From a virus, in the IMG/VR virus record IMGVR_UViG_3300028601_000032, positions 7,238 through 71,237 of that record: DNA of 64,000 bases. One strand, 5' to 3'. Position 1 is the stretch's first letter. Each line of letters begins with the position of its first letter. The position numbers and the translations under genes are program-made. Below the pieces are notes generated by a model that had not been told where the DNA came from, searched no databases, and saw only the letters and a program-made list of their open reading frames with translations. This document shows, piece by piece, positions 3,491 to 44,379 of the stretch.

Positions 3491-3624
3491 GTTCTGTTAC
3501 TATGTAACTTCATATATATATAGTTTATCTACCGGTTGTTACAGCGTAACTGTTATATACTTAAAAGCCCTATACTAAGTATCAGAAAAGCGCGGGAAAT
3601 GCGCTGAGAAACAAGGTGAAAATA

Positions 3625-3786
3625 ATGGTACAAAAATATGAACTCTATACACTGACCGATCTGAACGGAAACAAATGGAATGTAATGGAAGTCCTCGAAT
3701 CAATGGCAGAGGACGAAATTGATACTGTTTGCAGAAAATACGGAATAGACGACTTGCGCTGGAAATGCGCGAAGGAAACAATTTAA
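3625..3786 (+). CDS. Small hypothetical protein (53 aa, not in ORF track)
   Basis: AGGTGA RBS, ATG at 3625, TAA at 3784-3786. Confidence 0.55.
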   Translation: MVQKYELYTLTDLNGNKWNVMEVLESMAEDEIDTVCRKYGIDDLRWKCAKETI

Positions 3787-3831
3787 AAATACTAGAAAAA
3801 ACGGGACTAAGATAACAAAGGAGAAAGAACA

Positions 3832-5284: not shown

Positions 5285-5406
5285 GAATTACCTCGGGGAG
5301 TGCGGATGCACAGCGGGAAGACCCATTCCTTTAGGGAGGGGAGAACGTCAATGCGGATTTTATGACTTGCGCGGGAAATGCGCGAAGGAATCGAGGTGAA
5401 AATAAA

Positions 5407-5742
5407 ATGTTACCTCTCATTTTAGGTTTAATGTGTGGTGCAAAACCCAAAGAAATCTCACGTTTAATGGACGAAACAACGAAACGACACCAGGAAGCAG
5501 CCGAAGAATTACGCAAAAAGGAAGAAGCAAAGAAAGCACAGATTGAATATGAACGTGAAAAGTTCGAGGCTGTTATTGATGAGGTTTACGAGGAACTTGA
5601 AAAGTATGAATGTTTAGTTGGATCTGAAAACATGCAGGAACGGCTGTTGGATGAGCTTGATAATGTGTGTTATAAGATGAAGATAGACAGGGTAGAATTC
5701 TTTGAGATGTTTTTGAAAGGATTGAGAGAAAATTACGATTGA
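5407..5742 (+). CDS. Hypothetical coiled-coil protein (start corrected to ATG 5407)
   Basis: GAGGTGA RBS just upstream of the in-frame ATG at 5407. Confidence 0.6.
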   Translation: MLPLILGLMCGAKPKEISRLMDETTKRHQEAAEELRKKEEAKKAQIEYEREKFEAVIDEVYEELEKYECLVGSENMQERLLDELDNVCYKMKIDRVEFFEMFLKGLRENYD

Positions 5743-5973
5743 AGGAGGAATAAAAACAATGGTACAGAAAATATTGAACTTGACACAACATGCAGCGACC
5801 CCCGAACAGATCGTAGTAAGGAAAGTACAGGTATTCAGGCACGCCGGATTTGTAGAGGTGTGAAAATGACCTCTAAAAACTTTATAGAATGGGTACTAAC
5901 AATACTGATAGTTTTCACACTAACTCTGACAATATACATATTAATGGAAATATATATATGGGGGGTATAATTA

Positions 5974-6273
5974 ATGTCATCTTACCGCCCATCGTCAGCT
6001 ATAAAATGGCCTGATAGACTCGGGCCAATCAAAATACCAATCTCGGGAAATGATATCATAGAATACAAAACCCCCAACAACGTCGGACAACTTCAAGCAG
6101 CTTCATTTTCAGGGAAAACAGGCATTGTAATCAGAGGAAAAAAAGAGAAAGCAGACGAAATAATAATAAGTCCAACTGATGAAGTTTGGACTGTTACATT
6201 TACCCCTCGCGGCGTGATGCCGTCTGTGGGGGTTTATAATGAGGTTATCACAATTATTATAAAACCATTGTAA
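5974..6273 (+). CDS. Hypothetical protein
   Basis: ORF track only. Confidence 0.5.
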   Translation: MSSYRPSSAIKWPDRLGPIKIPISGNDIIEYKTPNNVGQLQAASFSGKTGIVIRGKKEKADEIIISPTDEVWTVTFTPRGVMPSVGVYNEVITIIIKPL

Positions 6274-6275
6274 TA

Positions 6276-6307
6276 ATGCCCTAAAAGTATATATACTTTT
6301 AGGGCAT
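6276..6307. promoter_or_regulatory. Perfect 32-bp palindrome centred on a TATA box
   Basis: atgccctaaaagtatatatacttttagggcat equals its own reverse complement; about 50 bp upstream of the 6361 gene. Confidence 0.8.
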
Positions 6308-6360
6308 ATAGTATATTGTAGTAAGGGCATAAGGCCCTAATAAGAAGGAGGAAAAGACAA

Positions 6361-6942
6361 ATGATAAACCTTACAAAACTAGGAAAAGTAACAAAAACGT
6401 GGTGCAAAGACGGAAAACACAGAATGTATGTCAATGATCTATGTACATTAATTGGAATAGACCCAAAACATTTAAAAAGCGGAGAAGAGGGGAGAATTGC
6501 AAGAGAACTCGTGGCTGCCAAACTCTGGTACGATGTTGTAGCCGATGAATGGGTGAGCCAGGGGATAGGGCAGGCTAGAAAAGAACAACTCGTGGCAGAA
6601 ATACTGAAACAAACTGGAGCTGAAGAAGTTGATGAAGAAGTTGAACATGAAACAGTTGAAGAACTAGAAACCATAGAAGAAACTGAAGCTCCTGAATTCA
6701 CCGCAACAAGACCAAAAGATTCACCAATTGCAATAATCAACAGAATGCCAGAAAATAATGAAGACCTTGAAGCACTTTTCAAAGCTGAGAAAATAACAGA
6801 ATTCAAATCAAAAGTACTTTACCTGAATGGTGCGCTCCAAGTAGGGCGGATACATAATATACACTTCGACAAAGCAAAATATAAAGAAATATTCATGAAC
6901 TATCTTCTCGAAGAAAAGGAAAACAGTAATAAGAGGGCTTGA
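6361..6942 (+). CDS. Hypothetical protein with acidic linker
   Basis: GGAGG RBS; EEVDEEVEHETVEELE linker. Confidence 0.7.
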   Translation: MINLTKLGKVTKTWCKDGKHRMYVNDLCTLIGIDPKHLKSGEEGRIARELVAAKLWYDVVADEWVSQGIGQARKEQLVAEILKQTGAEEVDEEVEHETVEELETIEETEAPEFTATRPKDSPIAIINRMPENNEDLEALFKAEKITEFKSKVLYLNGALQVGRIHNIHFDKAKYKEIFMNYLLEEKENSNKRA

Positions 6943-7068: not shown

Positions 7069-7284
7069 GTGAGATACATGAACAATGAAAAAAGTATAAT
7101 ATCCAGAATAAAATCACATTTCTTTGATAAAATTTCATTATACGTATATGCTTACATAATATCAATATACATCGCAATATCACTGACTCAAAACGTTTAC
7201 ATTCATGCTACAGTGATATTGTTTTTTGCTTTAATTCCGATCAGGATCGTGTATAAAGATATAAAAGAGCACATGAAAAAATGA
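7069..7284 (+). CDS. Small two-TM membrane protein
   Basis: Two hydrophobic segments. Confidence 0.5.
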   Translation: MRYMNNEKSIISRIKSHFFDKISLYVYAYIISIYIAISLTQNVYIHATVILFFALIPIRIVYKDIKEHMKK

Positions 7285-7295
7285 AGAAAAAGATA

Positions 7296-7733
7296 TTAAT
7301 ATAATTCATTTTTTAATTTTATCATTTCAGTTAAATCCGGTTCCCCTCCTTCATAACAGATAACAACTACATTTGCAGCCTCATTGAGATATTCTCTGTA
7401 ATCCCGAATTACCTCTTTTTGAGATTCATCAAGAGTGTTATATCCATATTCTGTATCAAGCCTTTCGCTTTTGATCGTTGCCATAACACTCTCGCATAAC
7501 TGTTTATATTCAAGAGCGGTTAATGCACCCTGCTGTATCATAACCTCATTTACCGCATTTTCGACCTGATTCGATCTGTACTGTATATCTAATGCGAACT
7601 GGTCCCCGGTAGCATCTTCTTCAGCCACGAATGCAACTTCTTGATTCGAAGTTGAATACAGTGCCCCAAGTGCCATTACTGCAAATACGGCAAGCAGAAC
7701 CTTGATTTTAGCTGATTCTACGATTGTAATCAT
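7296..7733 (-). CDS. N-terminally anchored or secreted protein
   Basis: Hydrophobic N-terminal helix; last gene of the VirB4 operon. Confidence 0.6.
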   Translation of the reverse strand: MITIVESAKIKVLLAVFAVMALGALYSTSNQEVAFVAEEDATGDQFALDIQYRSNQVENAVNEVMIQQGALTALEYKQLCESVMATIKSERLDTEYGYNTLDESQKEVIRDYREYLNEAANVVVICYEGGEPDLTEMIKLKNELY

Positions 7734-8275
7734 AATTTATCATCCCTCTTTATAAACACCTTAACATATTTATTTTTATTAGTTTTTCCAAGCCACACGT
7801 CTCCACTTTTCTGAACTACAACTGGATCGCCCACATGTGCCTTTAATCTTGATTTCCTTATTTCAGTATAAATCGTTGATGGAAGCAGGATATAATGTTT
7901 GCATGTTTCTAATTCATATTCATTATCTGAAACAAAGACCCTGATTTCCTTCCCATAATTGAGTTCATTTACATGTATCCTCCCCCTTGAATCGGTTTTT
8001 CTATTTATTTCAATGGGTTTCCATATTTTAGAATTCACGTACCCCCCGTCTTCGTTTTCAATATTATTCATATTTGTTATAGAGTTAGACATATTGATAT
8101 ATTTATCTGAGTTAGACGTTTCAGTAATAATGGAGTCATAAGACCCAAAATCATGAAGCCCGGAGGGATTCATGCTAAATGCCATGCTATAAGTGACCGT
8201 ATGCCGCAGGCTATAGGGAACTGTATGCATGGCTGTCTGTCCTGAAATATTATTGAGGGACAGTGCCGGCAACAT
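7730..8275 (-). CDS. Protein with two DUF2080/AbrB-like repeats
   Basis: RKTDSRGRIHV..GKEIRVFV and VQKSGDVWLG..KYVKVFIK; true start may be downstream of 8275. Confidence 0.4.
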   Translation of the reverse strand: MLPALSLNNISGQTAMHTVPYSLRHTVTYSMAFSMNPSGLHDFGSYDSIITETSNSDKYINMSNSITNMNNIENEDGGYVNSKIWKPIEINRKTDSRGRIHVNELNYGKEIRVFVSDNEYELETCKHYILLPSTIYTEIRKSRLKAHVGDPVVVQKSGDVWLGKTNKNKYVKVFIKRDDKL

Positions 8276-10957
8276 TTAGACCGCCTCTACGCCGTTTTTG
8301 ACAAGCTGAGGGAGGATAGCACAGGAATTCTGTGCTTTTATGGATTCGAGCCATTTTGACACTGCTGCGCCCCTAACAAGCGTGTAATCGTCACCGAGTG
8401 CCTCAATTAGATGAGGGGTGTATTCCTTTTTAGAGATGAATATTACTTCGTCATAACAGCACGCGCCGGACGCATCACGCGCTAAAACCAAAGAATCGCG
8501 TTTTTCCTGGAGATCCTTGATTGAATGTTTGCATTCTTTTGTTTCGTATTCCCACGCAATTTTAATAATTTTACCGTTTGGCATCCTGAATTTAGCAACA
8601 CCATCGGCTTTCAGGTCCTTCCCATAGTTATTATCAGTTTCCACCGATTCAGCACCGGCGAGCATAAATTCCCCTGCAAGCAAAGCATTCATAAAATAGT
8701 GTTCTGTGGTCTGTCCTTTGATTTTGCCATCTTCTCCGAGCATAGATTTCTTGTAGAATACTACAGTGTTAAGCCCCGTGAATGGGTTTCTCTCGGTCTC
8801 TTTTTCCCATCCGTTTGGGTATTCTCTTAATTTGAGATCTTTATTATACCATGTTTTGCATGATACTTTCAGATTTTTAACTATCTCAGAAACCACAGGA
8901 TTCAGCACAATTTCACCACGCGCAGAGCCTTCGGTGTCTTCCTGTTCTTCGCATTCTACGCCAATCATCCGGTTTATTTCTTTTGCCAGTGGTCCTTTGT
9001 TTAAGATTGCTGCCTGTTCAAAATCATCAAGGTCATTGTAATATGGGACTCTGTGACCCTGGATAATAAGCAAGCCGTGACCTTTCCCTGGGGTTGTCAA
9101 TATCCTTACGCTCTGCTCATCAAGTCCGAATTCCGCTTTAATAGGTGCAACATTATCGGGCCGCATATTCGCGAAGAGTAGCACGTAAGCAGAATTCGCT
9201 TTCAGCATATCGAGCATGTCCCTCGGATACCCTGCGAGATCCTGGGATACTGTCTTTGTATAAAGCCCCCATGATCTACCCTGCCTGTAGAACTTTTCGA
9301 TGCTGTTTTTCATTGTTGGGTTCTTAACAAGGTCTGCGCCTTCATCGAGTGTTAACAACGTCCTTACTACAGGTGCTCCTGGTCTTGCCTGTGCGAGTTT
9401 CGTATAAACCACAGACATAATCATTAATGTGAGGGCTTCCTGTACGTTAGGAACTGCACTAAGCGCGGAAAGATCAGCTACAATATACGGGTTACTCAAA
9501 TCCATTATATTGTGATTTACGAGATATCCTAGGGGACCATTGGGCGTAAGCATTGCAGTGTTGTTATACAATGCTTCGATTGGGCCCGTCATTTTCTTAT
9601 GGGTTTCATCGTTAATCCATCCAAACAATAGATCCCTTAAGTCCGTAAAACACGGCCAGAACTCCCCGTCTTTCCACTTGTCTACATTGTCCATGCGAAC
9701 ATTTCCCCCGCCGTCAATGACGTGGAAATCTTCGTATAGTCTACTTAGTGCCTCCGTGAGCCAGTTTTTTTGTTGGTCTGAGTATCCAGAGCCGATTAAA
9801 AGCCCGATGCTTTCCAGAAGCATTGTAAAATGGGCTAAGTATGCGTCCTGGTATCCATCGACTGAGGTATCCATAGTCATTTCGTCAAAGAATACCTGGA
9901 ACATGTTCGGGTTTCTGCCATTTCTCCCAAATTTCCACAATAACCCATTAAGAACTTTACATACCCTGAGATGGTCAGTTATGCCATCTTTTTTCGGGAC
10001 AATATGAACAACGTGGTCACCGTCGAGATATGCTCGGATGTTATCTTTCAGCAGGTCTACCGATTTACCGCTTCCACTAACTCCTATTTCGAGAGCATTA
10101 GCGTTTGGGATGTTAGGATCATCAAAGTCAAAGTGAATAGGGTTTCCTGTCCTATCGTTCATCCCGATAAGTCTTCCTTTCCTTGCAAGGATTGGATCAG
10201 GAGATCGAAGGAGTGAAGTCTTAGCGCATAGGCTGGCCGGGACTGACTTTTTGAAAAGATTTGACCATATGTATGGAGTTGGTTGCATACTCTTCCATGT
10301 TTCAACCATTCCATACCTGGGGAGCTCATGTAAAATGCTTTTTTCATCACACACCGTTTCAATAGATTTTATGGTTTTTGTCACTGCCTTCTTAGAGAGT
10401 CCCTGAACTGCTGCTAAAAGGACATGGTGAAACAGCTTAGTGGTTCCATGATACAACTGCTTTTGATATTCGAATATGCCCTCTGCTGCAAGGTCATTAA
10501 TTACATCGTGCTGATGCAGGAATTTATCATCTTCTTCCTGTACTATATTAGCGATCTTAATGTTCCTGCGTGCTGTTTCAAGTGCTTCATTTTCATGGAG
10601 TGGATTAAGTGGGTACACTACCTGACAAAGTGAGATAGCTGTATCTTTCTGGGTTCCAATTTCAAAAAGCCTGTCCATAAAACGCTGATCGAGTTCTGTC
10701 GGGTAGTCCTGCCTATCTCCATATTTAGGGCTTATCCTGCCGATTACCATGCACTGAACCCAGGTATCATTAATCTCAATCCACCACCCATCTTTAGATG
10801 GCTTCAATGTAATGGGGAGGGATGTATCAATTACATCCTTTAACATTTTTTTGTTTTGTTCTTTTTCTTTTTCCTGCTTTTTAAATTTTTTATCCATTTT
10901 TATTTTATAAATTGAGTTCATAAACCCTGATTTTTTAATGTGGTCAAATATCATCAT
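8276..10957 (-). CDS. virB4: VirB4/CedB-like ATPase with extra C-terminal PD-(D/E)xK-like domain
   Basis: Walker A GVSGSGKS, Walker B LTLDEG, RQGRSWGL..SQD motif, N-terminal VirB4-type region; C-terminus has ADG..AWEYET..K. Confidence 0.8.
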   Translation of the reverse strand: MMIFDHIKKSGFMNSIYKIKMDKKFKKQEKEKEQNKKMLKDVIDTSLPITLKPSKDGWWIEINDTWVQCMVIGRISPKYGDRQDYPTELDQRFMDRLFEIGTQKDTAISLCQVVYPLNPLHENEALETARRNIKIANIVQEEDDKFLHQHDVINDLAAEGIFEYQKQLYHGTTKLFHHVLLAAVQGLSKKAVTKTIKSIETVCDEKSILHELPRYGMVETWKSMQPTPYIWSNLFKKSVPASLCAKTSLLRSPDPILARKGRLIGMNDRTGNPIHFDFDDPNIPNANALEIGVSGSGKSVDLLKDNIRAYLDGDHVVHIVPKKDGITDHLRVCKVLNGLLWKFGRNGRNPNMFQVFFDEMTMDTSVDGYQDAYLAHFTMLLESIGLLIGSGYSDQQKNWLTEALSRLYEDFHVIDGGGNVRMDNVDKWKDGEFWPCFTDLRDLLFGWINDETHKKMTGPIEALYNNTAMLTPNGPLGYLVNHNIMDLSNPYIVADLSALSAVPNVQEALTLMIMSVVYTKLAQARPGAPVVRTLLTLDEGADLVKNPTMKNSIEKFYRQGRSWGLYTKTVSQDLAGYPRDMLDMLKANSAYVLLFANMRPDNVAPIKAEFGLDEQSVRILTTPGKGHGLLIIQGHRVPYYNDLDDFEQAAILNKGPLAKEINRMIGVECEEQEDTEGSARGEIVLNPVVSEIVKNLKVSCKTWYNKDLKLREYPNGWEKETERNPFTGLNTVVFYKKSMLGEDGKIKGQTTEHYFMNALLAGEFMLAGAESVETDNNYGKDLKADGVAKFRMPNGKIIKIAWEYETKECKHSIKDLQEKRDSLVLARDASGACCYDEVIFISKKEYTPHLIEALGDDYTLVRGAAVSKWLESIKAQNSCAILPQLVKNGVEAV

Positions 10958-10958
10958 G

Positions 10959-11825
10959 TTAAAGCACCCCTTCGAGATTGTCCATGTGTCCCATCTGAGC
11001 GCATATAATCGCGTATTCGGTTGGATCAGTGACGATTCTTACACTGACACCATGCAGCTCTAACGACTCTCCATACTTCTCCCTAATCTCATCTATCAGA
11101 TCATTTGCTTCTGTATCGTTTGGGGTATATTCAATCCCTACAAAGATTACATGCATCCACCCTACACGGTTTTTAATATTTTCAAAATACTTCTTTTTCG
11201 CACTGTATCCAGCCCTTACAACAATTGGGAGATTCTTGTTTTTCAATTTTTCAGCATACACCTGTCCGATATTTGACAGGTGCTTGCTCTGTGCAGTTAT
11301 TGTTTTATGGATGCACTGTGTAGGGATAGTCCGGTATAGTTTTTCCATCCCGTCATAATATGCATCAGGATCGTTGGCATCTGAAGGGGACGCAAGCCAG
11401 CATGTCCCTCGGTTACAGTATACTCCTTCGTAGACCTTTGTTTTTTGGAAAGTTAATCGTCCCTGGTCATCTACGTTTTCAAGTCCTGTCCATGATGAAG
11501 TTTTTAAAAGTGTGTTTTTAGGGTCGAACTTGTGGATTTCATTCTTCTTAACTGCGTTTTTTGCTTTGAACGTGGTTTTAAGTTCAGCTTCATAGATTGC
11601 AGTTTTCGATCTTGCAAATTTATAAACCAGTCCCGCGATTACAAGCATCGAAATGATACACGAACAGACGAGCGGAGTATTATGCGGGTCTTTACTTATT
11701 ATGTTGATGAGTAGTACAATTATCGTGCCGGCAACTATGTATACTGCTATCTGTTTTTTGCCGTGTCTTGCTGTAACAGGGGTTTCAATTTTGATAAGTG
11801 AATTTGGAGTAGTTGTATCGGTCAT
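10959..11825 (-). CDS. VirB3/PrgI-like membrane protein
   Basis: Two N-terminal TM helices and position directly upstream of the VirB4-like gene. Confidence 0.45.
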   Translation of the reverse strand: MTDTTTPNSLIKIETPVTARHGKKQIAVYIVAGTIIVLLINIISKDPHNTPLVCSCIISMLVIAGLVYKFARSKTAIYEAELKTTFKAKNAVKKNEIHKFDPKNTLLKTSSWTGLENVDDQGRLTFQKTKVYEGVYCNRGTCWLASPSDANDPDAYYDGMEKLYRTIPTQCIHKTITAQSKHLSNIGQVYAEKLKNKNLPIVVRAGYSAKKKYFENIKNRVGWMHVIFVGIEYTPNDTEANDLIDEIREKYGESLELHGVSVRIVTDPTEYAIICAQMGHMDNLEGVL

Positions 11826-12937
11826 TAGAAATACCTCGCGAGTCTGACAGCCGTATTAAGTGTCTTTGGTGAGAGTACTTTCCAGAGTACAGGCCACGTG
11901 AGAAACAGGAATTCCATCATTACTACTGTTGCAAAAAGCCCAAGATAGATGAATGAAACGCTGTACCATGCAAGTGTTTGAGATGTGGTATAATCTACAA
12001 CTGTGCAACAAACCCATACAATCGCAAACTGTGAAAATATCATTACAATAATCGCAGAAGTTACAAGTATGGCAGCCCACCTCGTTTTCTTAAATGCGAA
12101 TGGTAGTCCGTACATAATCCAAATATGAGCTGAGATTAAGATCATCATTAATCTTATTGAAAAAAACAAAATTGAGCAGAGCCACAAAATACAAAATGTG
12201 AGATACAAACCGAGGCTGTCACTTGATAGAGTTACCTGGTCAAGAATTGATAACATCTGATCTTCTACAAGAGCATTATTGATTATTAACGAACCAAAAA
12301 ACAAAGCAGGACCAAAAAGTAGCCATGCACAAGTCTTAACAAAATAACTTCCCATTTCAGCAGGCGCAATATACTTTCTTCCATTGAAATCACTGAGGAA
12401 TTCAGCCGAATCTTCCGGGCAAGCAGACTGATAAATTAAGAATATCGCAAGTGCAGCCCCGAAAATAAGAATTGCTCTGATATAAATATCCCGCATCACA
12501 TTAATCCGGCTCATCATTTCGGGATCTTTTGTAGGGTCTATAGTGTGGGCAGTGACCGCAAAAATCGCCGTCTGTGTTTGGTCTTTCCCTTCAACATCCC
12601 CTAACTGCATCCCGCCTACAGAAACAAACAGAGTATTGATGTTATCAATAATGGTATTTTCAATCCCGTCTTTGATCATCTGTGCCCCGGCAGATATTTT
12701 AGTCGATTTTGTGACATATACATCATTTTTAGGGGATATCGTTGCAGTTTCGTTTAAGTCATCTACCCTGATTGATTGATGGGGGCTTGTTACATTTTCA
12801 AACACATCCGGTGATTTCATATCATCAACTGCGGCTTTGTGTGCAGCAGGGATAATCTTAAGGTGATCTTCTTCTGCGGCATGTGCAATCCCTGGAAGAA
12901 TTAGTATCAGCATCAAAAAAAAATACAGGGTTTTCAT
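11825..12937 (-). CDS. VirB6/CedA-like polytopic membrane protein
   Basis: Signal peptide, soluble N-domain and about 6-7 TM helices; position in the operon. Confidence 0.6.
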   Translation of the reverse strand: MKTLYFFLMLILILPGIAHAAEEDHLKIIPAAHKAAVDDMKSPDVFENVTSPHQSIRVDDLNETATISPKNDVYVTKSTKISAGAQMIKDGIENTIIDNINTLFVSVGGMQLGDVEGKDQTQTAIFAVTAHTIDPTKDPEMMSRINVMRDIYIRAILIFGAALAIFLIYQSACPEDSAEFLSDFNGRKYIAPAEMGSYFVKTCAWLLFGPALFFGSLIINNALVEDQMLSILDQVTLSSDSLGLYLTFCILWLCSILFFSIRLMMILISAHIWIMYGLPFAFKKTRWAAILVTSAIIVMIFSQFAIVWVCCTVVDYTTSQTLAWYSVSFIYLGLFATVVMMEFLFLTWPVLWKVLSPKTLNTAVRLARYF

Positions 12938-12944
12938 GCTAAAA

Positions 12945-13304
12945 TCACCAATTTGAGAGGATGGCCACGCCAGCAGAACCGAGCTTCAGGATTAAGAGCA
13001 CTCCGAGAATGCTAAAAAAACCCTTTCTGGTTTTTATTTCGTTTTCTACGTTGTCCCACCCACCAAAATAAAACTTCAGGGCAAGCCACCCGATAGCCAA
13101 GATAGCTATGTACGGGACCAAAGCATAAACGGTGTCAATTACCCACTTTAATTTATCAATATACGGGAGCTGGGATAAATTTTCCATGCCCTTAGCTGTA
13201 TCAGGTGTAAGAGAAATGTTTTTGCTTTCGTCGGCTGCATAAACTTTGCTTATCATTCCTGTTAGTGAGCCACTAACAGCCAATAACTTTGTTTTTATTG
13301 ACAT
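12945..13304 (-). CDS. VirB2/pilin-like protein
   Basis: 119 aa; cleavable-looking leader (VYA-ADE) and two hydrophobic helices separated by a short charged loop. Confidence 0.55.
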   Translation of the reverse strand: MSIKTKLLAVSGSLTGMISKVYAADESKNISLTPDTAKGMENLSQLPYIDKLKWVIDTVYALVPYIAILAIGWLALKFYFGGWDNVENEIKTRKGFFSILGVLLILKLGSAGVAILSNW

Positions 13305-13335
13305 ACAGTTAAATAAGACGTTTAAGTATATTAAC

Positions 13336-13361
13336 CTTGTTGAGTATATAAACTCAACAAG
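13336..13361 (-). promoter_or_regulatory. TATA box inside a perfect 10-6-10 inverted repeat, upstream of the pilin-like gene
   Basis: cttgttgagt-atataa-actcaacaag; minus strand reads TTTATATA. Confidence 0.7.
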
Positions 13362-13379
13362 TATTTACTTTTAAAAAAA

Positions 13380-16300
13380 TTAATTAAATGCTATATCCAG
13401 AATTTTATATCCGGCATACAGAGCCATTATTAACTGTACCACGAATGCAAATATTGATACAATGATCCCACGTTCTTCTTTATTATGTTCGATAATCTCT
13501 ACTTTTGCCGGGAATGATTCATATGGGGTAAAATACTCAACCTGAAGTTTTGACGGATCAAAATCCCCGTATATTACATATTCGTCTCCCATGAATGGTA
13601 TTGATCCTGTCCTTATGTCGCACCGGGACAACGTCGTATAAATCAAACCTTCGTCAGTTTCGGCCCTTTCTCCGAGCATTAACAACCTAGTAGATGTATT
13701 TTCCTCGTATGTAATTTCTATTTTTTGAATTGAGTCAGAGACAGGAATATTAATTCTCGTTACTGGATTCATAGTATCTTTAAAAACATGTACATAAACT
13801 GTAGCTTCCGTATCTCTTTTTAAAATATCATATGCAGGAGCAGAGTCTTCAAAAACGGTTTTTGAGGTTTTGGTCTTGCTCTTTTTCTTTTCACCTGTAA
13901 GCGTGTTCGTTTTTATTGTGTACCAACTGGTTTCGACTTTCAAAGATGCATATGCGATCCCGTCTTTAATTTCAACTGTTTCTTTTTTGTCTATTTTTTT
14001 AATATGACCTGTCCACCCCATTAGATCAGGGCTTCTAACTACTCTTGATTTAGTTAACACTGCGTTTTCATCAGGGATGTAGGGGACATCATCAATTACA
14101 ACGACGTCTTTAAATCCGATTATTTTGATATACCCTGCCACGATTCCCTGAGTTGTTTCGTATTTTTTAAAATTACTATATGAAAAACTATCTGATGTTT
14201 GCCCTGTTCTTCCAGTATCTGAGAACTCAACCTCTAAAATATCAAATATCGAATCAAACTCCCTCTCAGGCCCCGGCTCAAAGTCCTCGTCCTCGATATC
14301 CTCAACGCCAGTCCCGCCTCTCATAGTCATTTCCGCAGAAACATAATCACATTCCCATGCCGAACCTGTCCAGTACCATTCAGAAGACCCAGGGTTAACT
14401 CTAGGGTCCTGCTCGTAATCACTTCCAGAACATCTATTATAATTCCCCGCAGAATTCCCCCACAAAATATTATCTTTGGAAATTATTTTATGCGAGTTTT
14501 CAAGAGTGTTTGATATCCCATACCCTTTTCCGCTCCCTGTATTGTGTCCTGCCTTAGTATTTGTAATTATATTATCTTGAATATCAATGCAGAAATTAGC
14601 CCCATTAGCCCCTTTAGACAGCCCTTTAACTGAATACGTGACAATCCCCGCATTTGAACAGCCGTCGAACACGTTATTATAAATATTGACATTATGGACT
14701 CCTGAAATCAAGATACCTGCCTGCCAGTTTCTCCAATCCCATCCAGTCGAAAGGAAGGCATTATGATGTATTTTTATTTCCGAGTTCGACTCATCGTAAT
14801 TAGACTGTGTGCCCGCTATCCACATCCCAGGCCCGCCGGTCATTTTGAATACGTTATTGCAGACCTCGGCATTCATTACCATGTTTTTGTCGGTTTTATC
14901 AAGCTGCACCCCAGGTCCTGCACTTTCCCGCGCCGAGCAGGTGATGAAATTGTCATGAATATAGGCATGGTCGCTATCTCGGATACGGGCTGCGTTATTG
15001 ATCCTGCAATCTATATTACATCCTGACATTTCAACATAGTCGCTTTTGATCGCGAAAAGGGCTTCGTGACCTAGTTTATGCGCTTCAATGTCTTTGAACT
15101 CGACATTGCTGCATTTTGTAGCTCGTAGGAAGTCTCCCAGGGAGTTTGATCCTGTGCAGTCGTGGACGTTTACGCCGTCGCAACCTGTGGGCATGATGAA
15201 ATTATAAAAACCCCTACCCGTTATCAGATCGGTTTGCCTGTCTGCATTTCCATCAAAATGGATTCCGGTAATTTCAATATTTTTACAGTTGTTCGCACGG
15301 ATCAGAGGGACCATCTTGTTTGCATAGTCTTTCGTCGCTTTGTGTTGATATTCGCTCCCAGATAGCCGGTTTGCGTTGTCTGGAATGGTTATGGTTGTCT
15401 GTCCTTGCCCGTCTAAAACGGTGCCGGAGTCTAATATAATAGGATCATTGATGCAGAAATCTCCAGACAGTATAATATAGTCCCCTGCTTTGATAGCCTG
15501 ATTGATTTCTACCTGATCGGCTGTTCCGTCGCATCCTGTGACCTCTATTCTATCCGTTTCAGGAGCAGACCCCCCTACAGTATTTCCATCAATGACTATC
15601 TCATTGAATGAGACTTTCTTTCCAGAAGCCTGAGAAACCTCATTGACTCCAGAACCAAGTTTATTATTTTCAATTATGAGTTTATCCTTAGTGCCTCCTC
15701 CGTAAAGATAGCAGACATATCCTTTGTCTACATAATTATTTTTTATAGTATGAGTCCCGCCGTTAATGTTTCCTCGATAAACAACTCCTCCCCTGCCTCC
15801 ATAAACTTCGTTACCTGAGAAATCAGAATCAAGAGAGCCATCAATGAACGCAAAGAAGCTCTTAAACACTGTTATTTTATTATTTTTTACCTCATAATTG
15901 AGGGTTATCGCATGAGCATCAACCGGATTTGCGCCTTCAATGGTGGCTCCAATGAATTCATTATCATGGATTGATATGTCTCTCAGGAGTGTGAGCCGCT
16001 CATTGGTATTTCCTGTGATACAATGCCTGCAATTCTCAATGTAATTATCATGGATGTCTATGTTAGCCGATCCTGACCATGCGCCGACCCCATAGCCACT
16101 GCCAGATTTAATCGAGTTTCGTATGTCGCAGCCGGATACCTCAACATCATAACAGGAATACAACGAGAGAGCAGCTAATCCACTGTCCCTGATGTCTACG
16201 TTTTTTACACTGCTGTCTTTACAGGCTTCAAGGGTTATTGCCATTCTGTCGCCGATTGGGTCTGAGTCCTGTATTTTCAGATTTGTAATATGGATTTCAA

Positions 16301-16826
16301 CCGGTCTTAAGACGAGAACGCGGGAGTCATCGGAAAGCGGATAATCCCTCAGAAGTGGCTCGGTGAGTGTGATTGTGTTGTCTGAGACACTTCTAACCTC
16401 ATACATTTCTCCTGTTTTTTGTTCGGGGTAATCCTTTGGACACCACAGGACAGACTTGTAGATCTTGATTAGGTCGCCTGCTTGCACTTTGCCGGCATCT
16501 TGGAGAGTGACAGTGTATGAGCCTTCAGACGCACTTTCAGACAGTTTGGAAGACGTAACTGTATGACCTGAGAAGAGAAGTCCGTTCTTCAAGCCGTCAT
16601 CTGTTTTGATTGAGATCTGATGTCCGTTACCATCGAGAACGAAACTTTTTCCTGTTGTTGTTATGGGCTTCGATATGGTCAGATCCTGAGTTAGTATTAT
16701 AGTGTCTCCGTTTTCTGCGTCGTTTAGCGCGGCTTGGAGGTCATTTGATACGGTTCCCGCGTGAGCTATACAAGGGAATAATAAAAAAATAAATAATATA
16801 ATTATTGTGTGTCGCGTCAGCTTCAT
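13380..16826 (-). CDS. Large secreted, membrane-anchored right-handed beta-helix protein (disaggregatase/pectin-lyase-like)
   Basis: Signal peptide, two beta-helix regions, CDGTADQVEINQAI motif shared with 47822-52738, C-terminal TM helix. Confidence 0.7.
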   Translation of the reverse strand: MKLTRHTIIILFIFLLFPCIAHAGTVSNDLQAALNDAENGDTIILTQDLTISKPITTTGKSFVLDGNGHQISIKTDDGLKNGLLFSGHTVTSSKLSESASEGSYTVTLQDAGKVQAGDLIKIYKSVLWCPKDYPEQKTGEMYEVRSVSDNTITLTEPLLRDYPLSDDSRVLVLRPVEIHITNLKIQDSDPIGDRMAITLEACKDSSVKNVDIRDSGLAALSLYSCYDVEVSGCDIRNSIKSGSGYGVGAWSGSANIDIHDNYIENCRHCITGNTNERLTLLRDISIHDNEFIGATIEGANPVDAHAITLNYEVKNNKITVFKSFFAFIDGSLDSDFSGNEVYGGRGGVVYRGNINGGTHTIKNNYVDKGYVCYLYGGGTKDKLIIENNKLGSGVNEVSQASGKKVSFNEIVIDGNTVGGSAPETDRIEVTGCDGTADQVEINQAIKAGDYIILSGDFCINDPIILDSGTVLDGQGQTTITIPDNANRLSGSEYQHKATKDYANKMVPLIRANNCKNIEITGIHFDGNADRQTDLITGRGFYNFIMPTGCDGVNVHDCTGSNSLGDFLRATKCSNVEFKDIEAHKLGHEALFAIKSDYVEMSGCNIDCRINNAARIRDSDHAYIHDNFITCSARESAGPGVQLDKTDKNMVMNAEVCNNVFKMTGGPGMWIAGTQSNYDESNSEIKIHHNAFLSTGWDWRNWQAGILISGVHNVNIYNNVFDGCSNAGIVTYSVKGLSKGANGANFCIDIQDNIITNTKAGHNTGSGKGYGISNTLENSHKIISKDNILWGNSAGNYNRCSGSDYEQDPRVNPGSSEWYWTGSAWECDYVSAEMTMRGGTGVEDIEDEDFEPGPEREFDSIFDILEVEFSDTGRTGQTSDSFSYSNFKKYETTQGIVAGYIKIIGFKDVVVIDDVPYIPDENAVLTKSRVVRSPDLMGWTGHIKKIDKKETVEIKDGIAYASLKVETSWYTIKTNTLTGEKKKSKTKTSKTVFEDSAPAYDILKRDTEATVYVHVFKDTMNPVTRINIPVSDSIQKIEITYEENTSTRLLMLGERAETDEGLIYTTLSRCDIRTGSIPFMGDEYVIYGDFDPSKLQVEYFTPYESFPAKVEIIEHNKEERGIIVSIFAFVVQLIMALYAGYKILDIAFN

Positions 16827-22162: not shown

Positions 22163-22408
22163 TTAGTGATTATTAACCCACCTATCAATAGAACAAATGG
22201 CAGCCCCCGCAACATTTAACCCGCTGATGCTGCATACTCCAATAACATCCCAGAAATCTGTATCCTTCTGAAAATGCCCGCATGTCCGGCAGACCTGCAT
22301 TTCAAATGATTGAGATTTTTTTAATTGTTCGTGGTCATGTTTGATTTCTGCAAGAGTGGGAAAACAGTTCATGCACATATCGACCCTCTTAAGAGTATTA
22401 TACTTCAT
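22163..22408 (-). CDS. Cys-rich hypothetical protein
   Basis: CMNC, CRTCGH and two further Cys; overlaps the head protein gene. Confidence 0.55.
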   Translation of the reverse strand: MKYNTLKRVDMCMNCFPTLAEIKHDHEQLKKSQSFEMQVCRTCGHFQKDTDFWDVIGVCSISGLNVAGAAICSIDRWVNNH

Positions 22409-23213
22409 TGATTTTCATTTTCCATGCCTGTTCCTGTCCATCCCAGAACAAACCGGCTTCGTCCTTCAATCTCTGCCAGTATTTCGCATCATAGTCCTTC
22501 TCGGAATACTCCTGAGCGCGATGTCTGCAATGGGGTTCCCGGAGCACCTTCTCGGCGTAGTCGCTCTGAAGAGTTCCCCAGATGAATATCTGCCCCACAA
22601 GAGCTACATGGCTTGGGCGCGCTATCTCGTCTACAGGTCCCACAAAGACCCATCGTTCTTGCTGCAAGACAAGTGCCTGTTTTCGTCCTTCTTCATAAGC
22701 CCTGTGTGCTGCGATATCAGCGAGAAGAGAGGAATATACTAGGGTACTCGCTGAAAACGGCTTAGAGATGATCTTAGAGCGTTCCGAAATCGTGAGGTCT
22801 TTGTCAACATAGAGTTCTTTCTTTTTTTTGCCCACATTGTCAATTGTGATATTTTCTTTTCCTGAGAAAACATCTGAAACATATTTCTGGATTTCATCTT
22901 GAGTGCTGCCCGCTTCGGACATCTCTTTTACTTTGTTCAATATCTGATCTTGTGCGGAGGTATTGAATTTCTTGAGGGACCCCAAAAAGAGAGCTAACAG
23001 GATAGCGAGCTCGGCTTTTTCTTCGGTTGTTAGGCCGTCCTCTTCAGGATCTTCGGCTGAAATGAGAGGACGGGTAGATTTATGTTTTTGCCCTGCGCCC
23101 CGTCCTGCAAGATAGTTTTTTGCAAGTTCTTCGGTGAGGGCTTCGGCTTGGGTAGATTCTATTTTTTTAAAAGCTTTCTTAAGTGACTTCTTAAAGTCTT
23201 TGAGGTTAAACAT
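22398..23213 (-). CDS. Minor head morphogenesis protein (SPP1 gp7/Mu F-like)
   Basis: VDEIARPSH..G..REPHCRH motif; directly after portal. Confidence 0.75.
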   Translation of the reverse strand: MFNLKDFKKSLKKAFKKIESTQAEALTEELAKNYLAGRGAGQKHKSTRPLISAEDPEEDGLTTEEKAELAILLALFLGSLKKFNTSAQDQILNKVKEMSEAGSTQDEIQKYVSDVFSGKENITIDNVGKKKKELYVDKDLTISERSKIISKPFSASTLVYSSLLADIAAHRAYEEGRKQALVLQQERWVFVGPVDEIARPSHVALVGQIFIWGTLQSDYAEKVLREPHCRHRAQEYSEKDYDAKYWQRLKDEAGLFWDGQEQAWKMKINEV

Positions 23214-23215
23214 TG

Positions 23216-25000
23216 TTATTCCTCAAAAACGGTTTTCATTCCTTCTTCATATGCCTCTTGCAGTTTCTTAACTAATTCCGTTTCATCAAAATTCGAGGGA
23301 GCCGTAGGATCGGCAGAAATTAGCCCTCCATCCTGCATGGCTCCAAATAAACAAGCCTTCAAAATCGCATTAACCTCCTGGACCTGCTCCGGCCAGAGTG
23401 GATTGATCTGGGCCTCGTAGTTATCCAATCCCAACAGCCCGAACCCATACTCCTCTCCGAGTGCCTGAGAATCCATCTGGGAGGCTCCTACGCCCTTGAC
23501 TATAGCGAGCGTTTCAGCGTAAGTTTTCGCGACCTGAGCTTCAGTCAAAATGTCTTTTGTATCCGGTGTATCGAGGGTGAAGTGGGCCTTAATGTCCTCG
23601 AAAGAATAAGCTCCCTCTTCACCGTTCCATGTTTTTCCTGAAAACATCAATTTGATAAGCCGGTCTGCCGCTCCTTCATATTCAGTCCTCTCCCCTGTGT
23701 GAACTGAGTTGAAAATCTGTAAAATATTTCGAGAGCTGGCCAATTCCGTACCTGTCGCATCAATAAGAGATATTGGAAAACCGAATGCTTGACCGATCTC
23801 TTCATTAAGTTGATCGATGAGCATTTTTATGAAGTTCTCCGAAACCGATTTCGCACTTTCGACGGGCTCTAATGAGACATCAGGAGGAGTTGTAAGGACG
23901 CCTCCCTCTTTCATACTGCTAAGAACATTGTTTGAAAGTGTCTTCATTGAGTCCACCCACGAGTTGTAGGCTGCGATTTCGGCGGAATAATTAAAAGAGT
24001 TCTCGGCGGGTTTCCGGGGAGTTGACGTGACGAAAAACGGATTCCCGGACATGTCCTTTCCGAGCTGAACCATACCGTTCTTCGCGTGGATGAATGGGCT
24101 CAGGATAGAATAGATCAAGTTGGGAGAATTTGTAAGAAGTAATCTTTTCAACCAGATAGCCAGGATAACAGAATCTATCGGCGCATGATCCGTTTTTGTC
24201 TCACACTCGTCATAATAAACATTGTGAGGCTGTCTAACTTCTGTATTATGCATTGCCACAATGCGCTCGGCTGCTGCTATTCTCAGATTGTTGATATCTG
24301 AAATGCTATAATCAGTTTTGTATTTTTCAAAGAGAGCTTTAACCGCGTCACTGTTTCCTGTTTCCCGCTTGTCGATAAAAGTTGCATAGTGATCGAGGGT
24401 CCCGAAGGGAATAAACCATGAATCAACCTCTTCGGCGGTTCCATAAGACGAAAATGATTTATTAACGCGGGCTTTCTGATGATAAAAAATTATAGATGAG
24501 TCCCAGGGATCAGTATAAGTTCTGACTGTTGCCGGGGTGATCCTTTCGAGGTGGTGGATATTTCCGTCGGTATCCCGGTCAATTCTTCGGAATGAGTGCC
24601 CGACGAGGATGCCGTAATCTTTGTAGTCTTCCCGGAATACCTGCATTAGTTTGATGGATTCGACCCAATCTGTTATCTCTTCTATAGCCTGATAGTAGAG
24701 TTTGTTGTCCTTTGTTTGGATTGTAAACCCCTGAAGCAATGTATTTTTTAGATATGGATAGATTGTGCCGGATAGGAGCGGATCAGCTTCAAATGCTTCC
24801 TGCCGGAGTTTAGGGGTTGCATGTGGGATTTTGTTTTTTGTTTCCTGAATCCATTTTAGGAGGTTTTCGTGGGAGAGATAATGGTTTTCTAGGGGTTCTG
24901 ATGAGGACGCGCCTACGGTGGATGAGGATTTATCTGTTTGTGGTTGGGGGGATTGTTTGGAGGTTGTGGAAAAAAGAGAGGATATTTTAGGGAGTTGCAT
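23216..25000 (-). CDS. Portal protein
   Basis: 594 aa helical protein upstream of the gp7-like gene, with portal-like EIGQAFGFPISL segment. Confidence 0.7.
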   Translation of the reverse strand: MQLPKISSLFSTTSKQSPQPQTDKSSSTVGASSSEPLENHYLSHENLLKWIQETKNKIPHATPKLRQEAFEADPLLSGTIYPYLKNTLLQGFTIQTKDNKLYYQAIEEITDWVESIKLMQVFREDYKDYGILVGHSFRRIDRDTDGNIHHLERITPATVRTYTDPWDSSIIFYHQKARVNKSFSSYGTAEEVDSWFIPFGTLDHYATFIDKRETGNSDAVKALFEKYKTDYSISDINNLRIAAAERIVAMHNTEVRQPHNVYYDECETKTDHAPIDSVILAIWLKRLLLTNSPNLIYSILSPFIHAKNGMVQLGKDMSGNPFFVTSTPRKPAENSFNYSAEIAAYNSWVDSMKTLSNNVLSSMKEGGVLTTPPDVSLEPVESAKSVSENFIKMLIDQLNEEIGQAFGFPISLIDATGTELASSRNILQIFNSVHTGERTEYEGAADRLIKLMFSGKTWNGEEGAYSFEDIKAHFTLDTPDTKDILTEAQVAKTYAETLAIVKGVGASQMDSQALGEEYGFGLLGLDNYEAQINPLWPEQVQEVNAILKACLFGAMQDGGLISADPTAPSNFDETELVKKLQEAYEEGMKTVFEE

Positions 25001-29153: not shown

Positions 29154-30479
29154 TTAGATTCTCATTCCTCCCGAACTCGAAGCCCCGACAAACGAAGTTT
29201 CATATACCTGTTGAGAAAGCAGCTTAATAAGCTCATTATAAGCACCGCTCGAAGCATCTACAGCATCATCATGTACGCCCTTCTGAGGAAACGGACACAA
29301 GAAATTAATAAGAGTAGAATTCCAAGGAGCCCGCTTAAGAAATACCAATCCGTTTGATACTGCCCCTGAAAAGCCTCTTGCCCGTATTTCCTTAGAACCT
29401 GAAGACTTTATACCTTGAAAGCCGGTCCCTTGGAAAAGTGTTTTTGCAAAATTAAACACATCGTCCTTCCCGGAAGCTCCGCCTTCCTGTTCCATTCGTT
29501 GAAGTACCTGTGAGCCGTCCATCTTGATAGTTGCCTTAATTACTTCGTCCCTCTGTGCAGGATTTAACCGGACCAGAACCATATCAGCAATATAGAAGAG
29601 TCCGTTAAGTTCTCCCATTAGAACCCCGGCTGTATAGTCTGGATCTTGATAACCATGAGAAGGTTCCGAGGCTGCCATATCCCAGAATCTAACCCACTTT
29701 GTTATTCCTCTTGGGATTTCATCAACAAATTTAAACCACTCTCTTTTAAACATGTTGCCATTTGCAATAATATCCCAATCACCGTATTTTAGTTGGGCTT
29801 TTGTGATTGGATCAAGAGCGTTAAGGGATTCCTCATAAGCGGCCTGATCTATGAAAGGGTTGTCTTCCAGGCTGGCAGGAATAAAGAATCTATCGTTTGC
29901 TTTCATTTCTTCAGGTGATGGAGTGATAAAGCGAGCTTTCACCCACTCATGTCCCACGCCTCCAGGGTTTGAAGCCGCTCTTATCCTGAGAGGGATAACT
30001 GAGTTTTCCAACCTACGAAGCCTGGAAAAAAGATAAGAGTACTGAGTCTCAGAAAATTGAGTAAGTTCATCAAAGGCGATAAACTGGAACTCCGCACCTT
30101 GGTATCTGTACTTGTCATTTTCATGTTCAAGATATCCGAATGTTAGTGTAGCACCTGAAGGAAATTTCCAAGTCTTTGTTTGTTCATTCCATTTTGCATC
30201 TGAATTTCTAAGCCATTCATTGGCCCTATCCATTATAGCGCCAGGGAGGGACAGATCTGCATAAGAACGCCTTAAAATGAGAGCTGAATATTTTGGTTCC
30301 GAAACATACTGAAGGGCGGCCATTAAGATGGTGCTGGACTTGCCTCCTCCTGCTTGCCCCCCGAATAAGCCTTCCTTTTCGGTTCGCTGTAAAAAAAGAG
30401 ATTGTTTATAAGTAGGATCTTGAGGGAGATATTTATTATCTAAAACAGTTCCTATGAAAGTATTGTCATCAAGAACCAT
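29154..30479 (-). CDS. terL: Terminase large subunit
   Basis: Walker A GGQAGGGKS, Walker B FDELTQF, nuclease motifs RFWDMA, DYTAG, HDDAVDA. Confidence 0.95.
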   Translation of the reverse strand: MVLDDNTFIGTVLDNKYLPQDPTYKQSLFLQRTEKEGLFGGQAGGGKSSTILMAALQYVSEPKYSALILRRSYADLSLPGAIMDRANEWLRNSDAKWNEQTKTWKFPSGATLTFGYLEHENDKYRYQGAEFQFIAFDELTQFSETQYSYLFSRLRRLENSVIPLRIRAASNPGGVGHEWVKARFITPSPEEMKANDRFFIPASLEDNPFIDQAAYEESLNALDPITKAQLKYGDWDIIANGNMFKREWFKFVDEIPRGITKWVRFWDMAASEPSHGYQDPDYTAGVLMGELNGLFYIADMVLVRLNPAQRDEVIKATIKMDGSQVLQRMEQEGGASGKDDVFNFAKTLFQGTGFQGIKSSGSKEIRARGFSGAVSNGLVFLKRAPWNSTLINFLCPFPQKGVHDDAVDASSGAYNELIKLLSQQVYETSFVGASSSGGMRI

Positions 30480-43629: not shown

Positions 43630-43962
43630 TTATTTCTTTTCTTCAGTCGTCACCGCTTCAAATAACATTTTTCCAACTGTGGCGACATCCTCAACAGTTA
43701 TCGAATCCTTCTTCTCTTTCATTTCAACTACAGTTGACACAATAGTAAGAAATTCCTTTTTTGAGATGTTGTTTGAGAGTATCCCGGCAACTTCTTTGAG
43801 TTCTCGGTACTCTTCTACCTTGTCAAATGTTGCCAGCTTAATTCCCTTTTTCTTAATATAAGCCTGTAGCCCGCAAGCAAACGAAATAAAACCGATAGCA
43901 AACGACACAAACAGCTCAAAAAGTTCTTCTAAATTCTGATAGTCAATTACCAACTGTTCCAT
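43630..43962 (-). CDS. Single-TM membrane protein (holin-like candidate)
   Basis: One TM helix; follows the putative lysis enzyme genes. Confidence 0.45.
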   Translation of the reverse strand: MEQLVIDYQNLEELFELFVSFAIGFISFACGLQAYIKKKGIKLATFDKVEEYRELKEVAGILSNNISKKEFLTIVSTVVEMKEKKDSITVEDVATVGKMLFEAVTTEEKK

Positions 43963-44055
43963 TAGATCACCTCATTTCAATGAAAATCCCAGGTATGCGA
44001 CCTTTTCAGGGTCTACATTCTCTTTTTTCCGCGTTCCTTCAAAAAACACTTCTTA

Positions 44056-44229
44056 TCACTCCTTTTTCAATAGAGTTCCCGGAAGAGGGATTCCAACCCC
44101 TACCCCCAATAAAAACAGAATAGCTTTCAGTAAAAAACCGTCCTGATGTGTCAGGATCAGGCAAACGCCCAATAAGATAGCCCCGATGATTGAAATGAGG
44201 AAGATTGGATTACATTTTTCAAATTCCAT
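44056..44229 (-). CDS. Small two-TM holin-like protein (57 aa, not in ORF track)
   Basis: MEFEKCNPIFLISIIGAILLGVCLILTHQDGFLLKAILFLLGVGVGIPLPGTLLKKE. Confidence 0.6.
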   Translation of the reverse strand: MEFEKCNPIFLISIIGAILLGVCLILTHQDGFLLKAILFLLGVGVGIPLPGTLLKKE

Positions 44230-44379
44230 TCACATACCGTCCGTTTTTTCTCTGCGTAGGAAGTACTGACATAATAATAAAAAATATGAAAATTGTATTC
44301 AAAAAGGAAAATTGTTCTCTACTAATCGTCGAGTATCTCTTTTTAGGTCACTTCGTACGACCGCTGCGAAGCCGTTCTC

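Follow-up and report, generated by a model that had tools for sequence, protein, structure and literature searches.

A VirB4-type gene cassette in a tailed virus, probably of Methanosarcina, and its possible role in contact-dependent DNA transfer

Layout of the cassette

The stretch of DNA analyzed here, referred to as the window, is 64,000 nt long and runs from base 7238 to base 71237 of one 71,237-bp contig, which is classed as a virus record (IMG/VR record IMGVR_UViG_3300028601_000032); window coordinates are used unless a position is marked as contig. Its minus strand carries a cassette of seven co-oriented genes, built around a VirB4-type ATPase, whose predicted products resemble components of type IV secretion systems (T4SS). 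The features of the cassette, from upstream to downstream and with transmembrane segments abbreviated as TM, are as follows.

13380-16826, minus strand: anchored beta-helix/disaggregatase surface protein, 1148 aa, first gene of the cassette and co-oriented with the rest
13305-13379, minus strand: intergenic control region of 75 nt, between the surface-protein gene and the pilin gene
12945-13304, minus strand: VirB2/TrbC-like pilin candidate, 119 aa
11825-12937, minus strand: VirB6/TrbL-like polytopic channel candidate, 370 aa
10959-11825, minus strand: two-TM VirB3-like protein, 288 aa
8276-10957, minus strand: VirB4-type ATPase with nuclease-like domain, 893 aa
8891-10957, minus strand: VirB4-type ATPase part of that protein (residues 1-689 of 893)
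8276-8890, minus strand: candidate PD-(D/E)xK-like (restriction-endonuclease-fold) domain of that protein, about 200 aa (residues ~690-893)
7730-8275, minus strand: soluble protein, 181 aa, sixth gene of the cassette, with homologues at the same position in all loci
7296-7733, minus strand: bitopic protein (TM 4-28), 145 aa, last gene of the cassette, position conserved
7255-7295, minus strand: T-rich tracts directly past the last stop, terminator-like for an archaeal operon

A sequence-only reading of this DNA had described the pilin-like, VirB6-like, VirB3-like and VirB4-like genes as one tight operon with its own promoter. The compact, co-oriented gene order bears this out, the six minus-strand genes from 13304 to 7296 being joined, in order, by a 7-nt gap, a 1-nt overlap, a 1-nt gap, an abutting junction and a 4-nt overlap, but the unit has seven genes, including the upstream beta-helix protein and two small downstream genes. 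In the control region, a T-run after the upstream stop is followed by a TTTATATA box enclosed in a perfect inverted repeat of 10 bp (13336-13361); a further A/T box lies about 25 nt before the ATG of the pilin gene. Because the layout of T-run, inverted repeat and TTTATATA box is kept in eight related loci, and because T-tracts follow the last stop, it is plausible that the cassette forms a separate, probably regulated transcription unit with its own promoter. The 181-aa protein had no family match in Pfam, PHROG, NCBIfam or PADLOC, nor did the 145-aa bitopic protein match any family; the latter is, on topology alone, a VirB8-like candidate.

The predicted motor, its nuclease-like domain and its membrane partners

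Searches place the 893-aa ATPase with VirB4, and no other family matched it convincingly. Its Walker A (GVSGSGKS, residues 291-298) and Walker B (TLDEG, 536-540) motifs are both invariant. In NCBIfam it matched the CD1110-type VirB4 (E 7.8e-23, residues 20-645), the Mbov_0397-type VirB4 (1.7e-17) and TraC (4e-7), all far below the equivalog cut-offs (80.6 versus 325 bits), and in Pfam it matched P-loop_TraG (4e-8). A profile of the ATPase family recovered the Thermoanaerobacter VirB4 (4AG5) from the PDB (E 6.9e-9), with no HerA or FtsK match in that search, and hhalign aligned the family with a canonical VirB4 alignment over 578 columns (prob 100, E 9e-40). By homology the protein is thus a VirB4-type ATPase, as the sequence-only reading had claimed, and an identity with HerA/FtsK ATPases, set beforehand as the outcome that would speak against this claim, is rejected given the VirB4 families in NCBIfam and the absence of HerA/FtsK from the PDB profile search. 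The ATPase-nuclease family comprises 66 representatives at E 1e-30 or better, mostly unannotated. A plasmid collection yielded solely remote bacterial VirB4 proteins at 19-26% identity, none of them archaeal, and the phage GenBank collection gave no DNA or protein match to the cassette. Among the VirB4-like representatives, P0089 (1259 aa) has LAGLIDADG/Hom_end domains at 513-593, an intein-like insert in the ATPase.

The gene preceding the ATPase ends 1 nt before it and encodes a 288-aa protein with a two-TM hairpin (residues 22-70) and a 210-aa soluble domain. VirB3 proteins are 10-15 kDa in size (PMC12857230), and the 288-aa protein is larger. Alignments of the ATPase to VirB4 begin about 170-300 residues into canonical VirB4, and the 288-aa protein appears to be a VirB3-type hairpin joined to the detached N-terminal part of VirB4, given its topology, its fused relatives, a PrgI-VirB4 fusion and a complex model. 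A hidden Markov model (HMM) of its family matches the N-terminal extensions of the longer VirB4-like proteins P0095 (E 7e-9), P0100, P0066 and P0077 (weakest 2e-6), so that in these relatives the two genes are one, and in the canonical relative P0162 a PrgI (VirB3) domain is fused to VirB4. An hhalign comparison of the 288-aa family with the N-terminus of VirB3-VirB4 fusions was collinear and not significant (prob 1.5%). In the complex model of the 288-aa protein with the ATPase, the soluble domain is placed on ATPase residues 35-256 with strand pairing. The model scored 0.69 (best of three controls 0.00; runs share at least 85% of contacts; partner predicted local distance difference test [pLDDT] at least 71). 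Of 80 solved complexes, 58 attained this mark, as did 2 of 110 mismatched pairs; split-gene halves or VirB3-VirB4-like pairs may pass it through resemblance to solved structures, so the score signifies likeness and not binding. The 288-aa protein was modeled poorly by AlphaFold2 (AF2; pLDDT 60), fold searches with this model returned weak R388 T4SS rows (E 0.06-0.25) and generic helical hairpins, and a PDB sequence search with its profile gave no match. The protein is nonetheless, like VirB3, a two-TM protein encoded next to virB4 and predicted to associate with VirB4, with a deviating size. Hence the earlier label "VirB3-like" suits the hairpin and misses the extra, split-off VirB4 N-terminal part that brings the protein to 288 aa.

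The C-terminus of the ATPase is a candidate PD-(D/E)xK-like nuclease-type domain. Its AF2 model (pLDDT 83.6) was most similar in VIA-align to Bax1 (Z 7.0), Cdn1 (6.9), Can2 (6.8), AF1548 (6.3) and Hjc (6.1), and in Foldseek to HindIII, PaqCI, FokI and BamHI (E at least 0.05); the best structural matches are nearly all PD-(D/E)xK nucleases, though the scores are middling. Across 65 family members the conserved residues are H753 (65/65), D785 (61/65), E803 (64/65), E805 (49/65) and K819 (52/65). The D...ExE arrangement also occurs in BamHI. Among the best 150 matches, about half of the 149 more distant representatives have the nuclease-like domain as their C-terminus. No relaxase family was matched by the 893-aa protein in the Pfam scan, and the domain is a candidate relaxase substitute only. 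MOBC relaxases such as TraX of pAD1 and MobC of CloDF13, which are PD-(D/E)xK-related (PMC12857230), provide a precedent for a restriction-endonuclease-fold enzyme that processes conjugation DNA, and the cassette domain has a similar predicted fold and a conserved acidic motif. In contrast to the MOBC enzymes, it is fused to VirB4. As a natural VirB4-nuclease fusion, the protein may reveal how the DNA substrate is prepared in archaeal T4SS-like systems, in which known relaxases are absent.

A membrane-tethered ATPase bearing a nuclease-like domain would also suit superinfection exclusion or defense, in which it would degrade the DNA of competitor viruses or plasmids as it enters an infected or lysogenic cell. 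The fast diversification and module swapping described below fit this explanation, as do a weak match of the ATPase to PADLOC mad8 (E 2.5e-4) and a RAMPs match in the same genome, read as a type IV-B-like Cas set. However, the mad8 match spans the generic P-loop region only (18.7 bits), the other six cassette proteins have no PADLOC match, and it is conjugation VirB4 families that the ATPase matches best. Moreover, a pilin, a VirB6-like channel and an anchored depolymerase would be unexpected in an exclusion system, and we consider this explanation distinctly unlikely.

The VirB2-like and VirB6-like identities proposed by the sequence-only reading fit the topology of the two proteins. In the 119-aa protein, a cleavable signal peptide with the end VYA|AD precedes two hydrophobic helices (TM 58-76 and 98-116), and there are a short basic loop (GGWD..E..K.RK) and a C-terminal W, a VirB2 layout that is kept even in highly divergent cassettes. 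Pfam TrbC/VirB2 was matched by four of eight members of the pilin family, the best at E 3.2e-4, under the 27.9-bit cut-off, and a PDB sequence search with the family profile gave no match. The 370-aa protein, encoded between the pilin and the VirB3/VirB4 genes, has a signal peptide, an outer domain of about 130 aa and 5-6 TM. An ESM Atlas feature search ranked TrbL_4 best (0.93, 207 shared features), with all 10 of the top 10 named matches in the TrbL clan, while HMMER searches with the polytopic family found no Pfam or PDB match. The partial TrbC matches and the TrbL clan thus favor the two identities, neither of which has an above-threshold match in Pfam or the PDB; both are good leads, backed by gene position, that stay below family thresholds.

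The 1148-aa surface protein has a signal peptide (TM 8-26) and a C-terminal TM anchor (1120-1138), and matches Pfam Disaggr_assoc (2e-31) and Beta_helix (4e-14) as well as a PHROG tail spike. It is modular: the last ~300 aa (about 840-1148), which include the TM anchor, are common to all cassettes at 35-47% identity, and the N-terminal beta-helix part varies in length and sequence, with total sizes of 614-1148 aa across cassettes.

The cassette as a part of the viral genome

The contig encodes the following virion proteins.

29154-30479: large terminase TerL, with Terminase_6N/6C Pfam matches
23216-25000: portal, weak match
22398-23213: MuF-like protein, weak match
38-1051: coiled-coil scaffold-like protein
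contig 5691-6659: HK97-type capsid protein (Phage_capsid_4, 1.6e-6)

A tail terminator, a tail tube protein, a tape measure protein and disaggregatase-bearing fibers are also encoded, as are MCM, RecT and a tyrosine integrase. With TerL, portal, HK97-type capsid and tail genes in one replicon, the element is a tailed virus of the Caudoviricetes type, and the earlier claim that the cassette shares an element with intact head and tail genes is confirmed within a single 71,237-bp record. A role of the cassette itself as a packaging motor was rejected because a terminase is present. The host is probably Methanosarcina, given the disaggregatase domains and the occurrence of relatives in Methanosarcinaceae genomes (12 of 177) and in two Methanosarcina metagenome-assembled genomes.

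The seven genes recur in unchanged order on more than 15 independent contigs (JGI, ENA, Logan, NCBI and IMG/VR). In the window and in the related loci L021, L036 and L037, the cassette lies between the MuF and the scaffold/capsid genes and is co-oriented with them; in locus L005 it is followed by scaffold, capsid, tail terminator, tail tube and tape measure genes. L037 is part of a 54,099-bp IMG/VR record that has direct terminal repeats and a terminase. Three features might raise the suspicion of a chimeric assembly, or of a plasmid or integrative and conjugative element (ICE) with its own boundaries inserted in the virus: the ~21 kb of cargo that separates MuF (22398) from scaffold (1051) within the head module, the integrase in this cargo and a GC range of 35-43%. 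However, the cassette occupies the same place in assemblies from all five sources, including the terminal-repeat record, and neither the cassette nor the 21-kb cargo was found to have flanking direct repeats of at least 16 nt that fit att sites. An assembly error or an inserted plasmid with boundaries of its own is therefore very unlikely, with a probability close to negligible, and the cassette is integral to the virus.

The position of the cassette bears on another explanation, namely that it acts late, expressed together with the head genes, to open the envelope for egress (or to assist entry), the depolymerase and the membrane complex breaching the S-layer and methanochondroitin so that virions are released. 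Placement between co-oriented MuF and scaffold/capsid genes in these four loci agrees with such a role, the first cassette gene encodes a disaggregatase-type enzyme, and the lysis systems of Methanosarcina tailed viruses are not known. We nevertheless give this explanation little probability, as a separate disaggregatase pair with small TM proteins is encoded outside the cassette at 43630-46279, and a VirB4 motor, a pilin and a nuclease domain would be superfluous for lysis, a use for which there is no precedent.

Comparison with a 96%-identical copy of the cassette (L040) gave ratios of nonsynonymous to synonymous substitution rates (dN/dS) of 0.057 for VirB4 and 0.13 for the two-TM protein, with higher ratios for the channel protein (0.27) and the pilin (0.48), values which indicate that the cassette genes are under purifying selection and are maintained. 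Between window positions 7296-13304 and L040:1952-6971, dS itself ranges from 0.04 (pilin) up to 0.34 (VirB4), and this unevenness suggests recombination breakpoints inside the cassette. At larger distances, identities in the viral backbone and in VirB4 disagree, as in the following pairs.

Window versus L005: no detectable head-gene similarity in the backbone; VirB4 identity 68%
Window versus L020: scaffold 65% and spike 58% in the backbone; VirB4 identity 24%
Window versus L039: scaffold 63% in the backbone; VirB4 identity 38%
L005 versus L021: capsid 83% in the backbone; VirB4 identity 29%

From these comparisons, cassette and backbone have been shuffled and share no common history, and the cassette is best described as an old, swappable module with several deep types at one genomic site. 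Such a pattern of module swapping is more usual for specificity or immunity modules. In literature searches, the main methanogen-virus compendium lying outside them, we came across no paper that describes a VirB4-type cassette in a tailed virus of archaea; the VirB3-type hairpin with its split-off VirB4 piece, the VirB4-nuclease domain fusion, its H/D/ExE/K motif, the mosaicism, the selection and the lack of a coupling protein and a known relaxase are new points on this cassette.

A possible DNA translocator and its alternatives

We judge the chances to be about even that the cassette encodes a functional, T4SS-derived envelope machine, carried by tailed viruses of Methanosarcina as a conserved accessory module and acting as a contact-dependent DNA translocator like the archaeal Ced and Ted systems. 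Its parts would be a depolymerase, a pilus, a channel and a VirB4 motor that is tethered to the membrane and whose own nuclease would prepare single-stranded DNA. The anchored beta-helix/disaggregatase enzyme would open the methanochondroitin and S-layer locally, as a functional analogue of VirB1, and the VirB2-like pilin would be extracted from the membrane and polymerized on the VirB6-like channel. This work would be driven by the VirB4 motor, held at the membrane through its two-TM VirB3-like partner; the motor is assigned by sequence homology, and its association with the partner is supported by gene fusions in relatives and by the complex model. At the mouth of the channel, the fused nuclease-like domain may then nick or resect DNA, leaving a single strand to pass between neighboring cells. 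Both outward transfer, which would spread the viral genome inside cell aggregates, and inward transfer would be allowed in this scheme.

Known systems offer partial parallels. Ced (Sulfolobales, Aeropyrum) and Ted (Thermoproteales) have a three-part core without a type IV coupling protein (T4CP) or relaxase and bear no recognizable sequence similarity to each other (PMC9905601). Like the cassette, they combine a VirB2-like pilin (CedA1/TedC), a VirB6-like channel (CedA/TedA) and a VirB4-like ATPase (CedB/TedB), a likeness by composition alone; they too lack coupling protein and relaxase and have archaeal hosts, and TedC shares a cleavable signal peptide with the cassette pilin. In contrast, Ced and Ted are encoded on host chromosomes and import DNA for use in repair, while the cassette is virus-borne, has a nuclease-like VirB4 C-terminus and a separate two-TM VirB4 N-terminal part, and also includes a beta-helix depolymerase with a membrane anchor and two additional small genes. 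By sequence, the ATPase is matched best by the minimal T4SS of monoderm bacteria and mycoplasma ICEs (MPF-FA/FATA; CD1110-type and Mbov_0397-type VirB4; PrgH/PrgI/PrgJ of pCF10). These systems share with the cassette the order VirB6, VirB3, VirB4 with overlapping junctions and a membrane-anchored wall-degrading enzyme in the cluster, in the role of VirB1 (PMC12857230). Unlike them, the cassette lacks a T4CP, a relaxase and a recognizable VirB8, its ATPase has the extra nuclease-like domain, its wall enzyme is of the beta-helix/disaggregatase type instead of a peptidoglycan hydrolase, and it has a pilin gene, which most monoderm systems do not. Bacterial phage-plasmids and phage-ICE tandems likewise join virion and conjugation-type genes, and they are accretions of two complete elements or plasmid-like prophages (PMC13651849). 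The cassette virus, in contrast, has a reduced T4SS core inside an archaeal head-gene block, conserved across divergent backbones.

A tie to DNA transfer comes from locus L022:3072-10913, on a 42-kb NCBI contig (GCA_041643235.1), a related non-viral element where a more distant family member of 1066 aa fuses a two-TM part, VirB4 and a nuclease-like domain. This gene adjoins a VirD4/TraG coupling protein gene and ArdC-N, PIN and ParE (toxin-antitoxin) genes. Judged by its genes, L022 is a conjugative-type element that uses the same ATPase-nuclease family, and its neighborhood indicates that the family also serves conjugative-type elements; the viral cassette looks like a reduced derivative.

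Several points weigh against a DNA translocator. In Pfam scans of 92 open reading frames of the 71-kb genome there was neither a VirD4-type coupling protein (T4SS-DNA_transf, TrwB, TraG-D_C) nor a recognized relaxase. The pilin and VirB6 assignments lie under family thresholds, the structural matches of the nuclease domain have middling scores (Z no higher than 7; Foldseek E of 0.05 or more), the co-oriented position inside the head-gene block could mean a late, lysis-linked role, and conjugation is of no obvious use to a virus already able to spread by virions. The cassette is not a full conjugative plasmid apparatus. The sequence-only reading had spoken of a virus-conjugative hybrid, and what remains of that proposal is a minimal VirB2/B6/B3/B4-like set integral to a virion-forming virus, without coupling protein or recognized relaxase.

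The same missing components would be expected if the cassette were a pilus/adhesion or protein-secretion machine without DNA transfer, by which the host would display a VirB2-type pilus and the anchored beta-helix adhesin or depolymerase, altering aggregation, attachment or virus access to neighboring cells. Pilus biogenesis requires VirB2, VirB3, VirB4 and VirB6 (PMC12857230), the surface protein presents a variable N-terminal beta-helix on a conserved anchor, and cassette types are exchanged between related backbones in the manner of receptor or specificity modules. This alternative is rather unlikely in our estimation: the nuclease-like domain fused to the motor across the family keeps its H, D, ExE and K residues, and a machine with no nucleic-acid substrate would hardly account for it; moreover, a member of the family occurs with VirD4 in the conjugative-type element L022.

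Returning to DNA translocation, the conservation of the VirB4 cassette suggests that these viruses may also pass DNA directly between touching cells. A more specific and rather doubtful version is a second, virion-independent route of spread, in which the reduced machine, with its relaxase-like nuclease on VirB4, would pass the viral genome between the cells of Methanosarcina aggregates, and the viruses would exchange cassette types as specificity modules. DNA movement by viruses and by conjugative elements is usually regarded as two distinct processes, and a conserved conjugation-type machine under selection in complete tailed-virus genomes would blur this line. It would also be a testable candidate for cell-to-cell DNA passage in Methanosarcina, a key methanogen.

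Some minor features of the genome were also recorded. In the small-gene block beside the cassette, a 55-nt element with a GCGCGGGAAATGCGC hairpin is present in three copies (62-80% alike) at 3571-3625, 3737-3791 and 5350-5404, each directly upstream of a plus-strand gene, and is likely a shared regulatory site of this block. A gene for a DUF2227 (metal-binding) protein lies at 1410-1751, a few kb from the cassette, as it does in L005, L018, L020, L021 and L037. The Pfam scan of the remaining open reading frames of the genome gave one RAMPs match (8e-10) and one PAPS_reduct match (7e-15). Finally, an IS605 OrfB/TnpB-type gene (OrfB_IS605 7e-25, Cas12f1-like TNB 8e-23) is located at 57925-59046, inside the head-tail/tail gene block.

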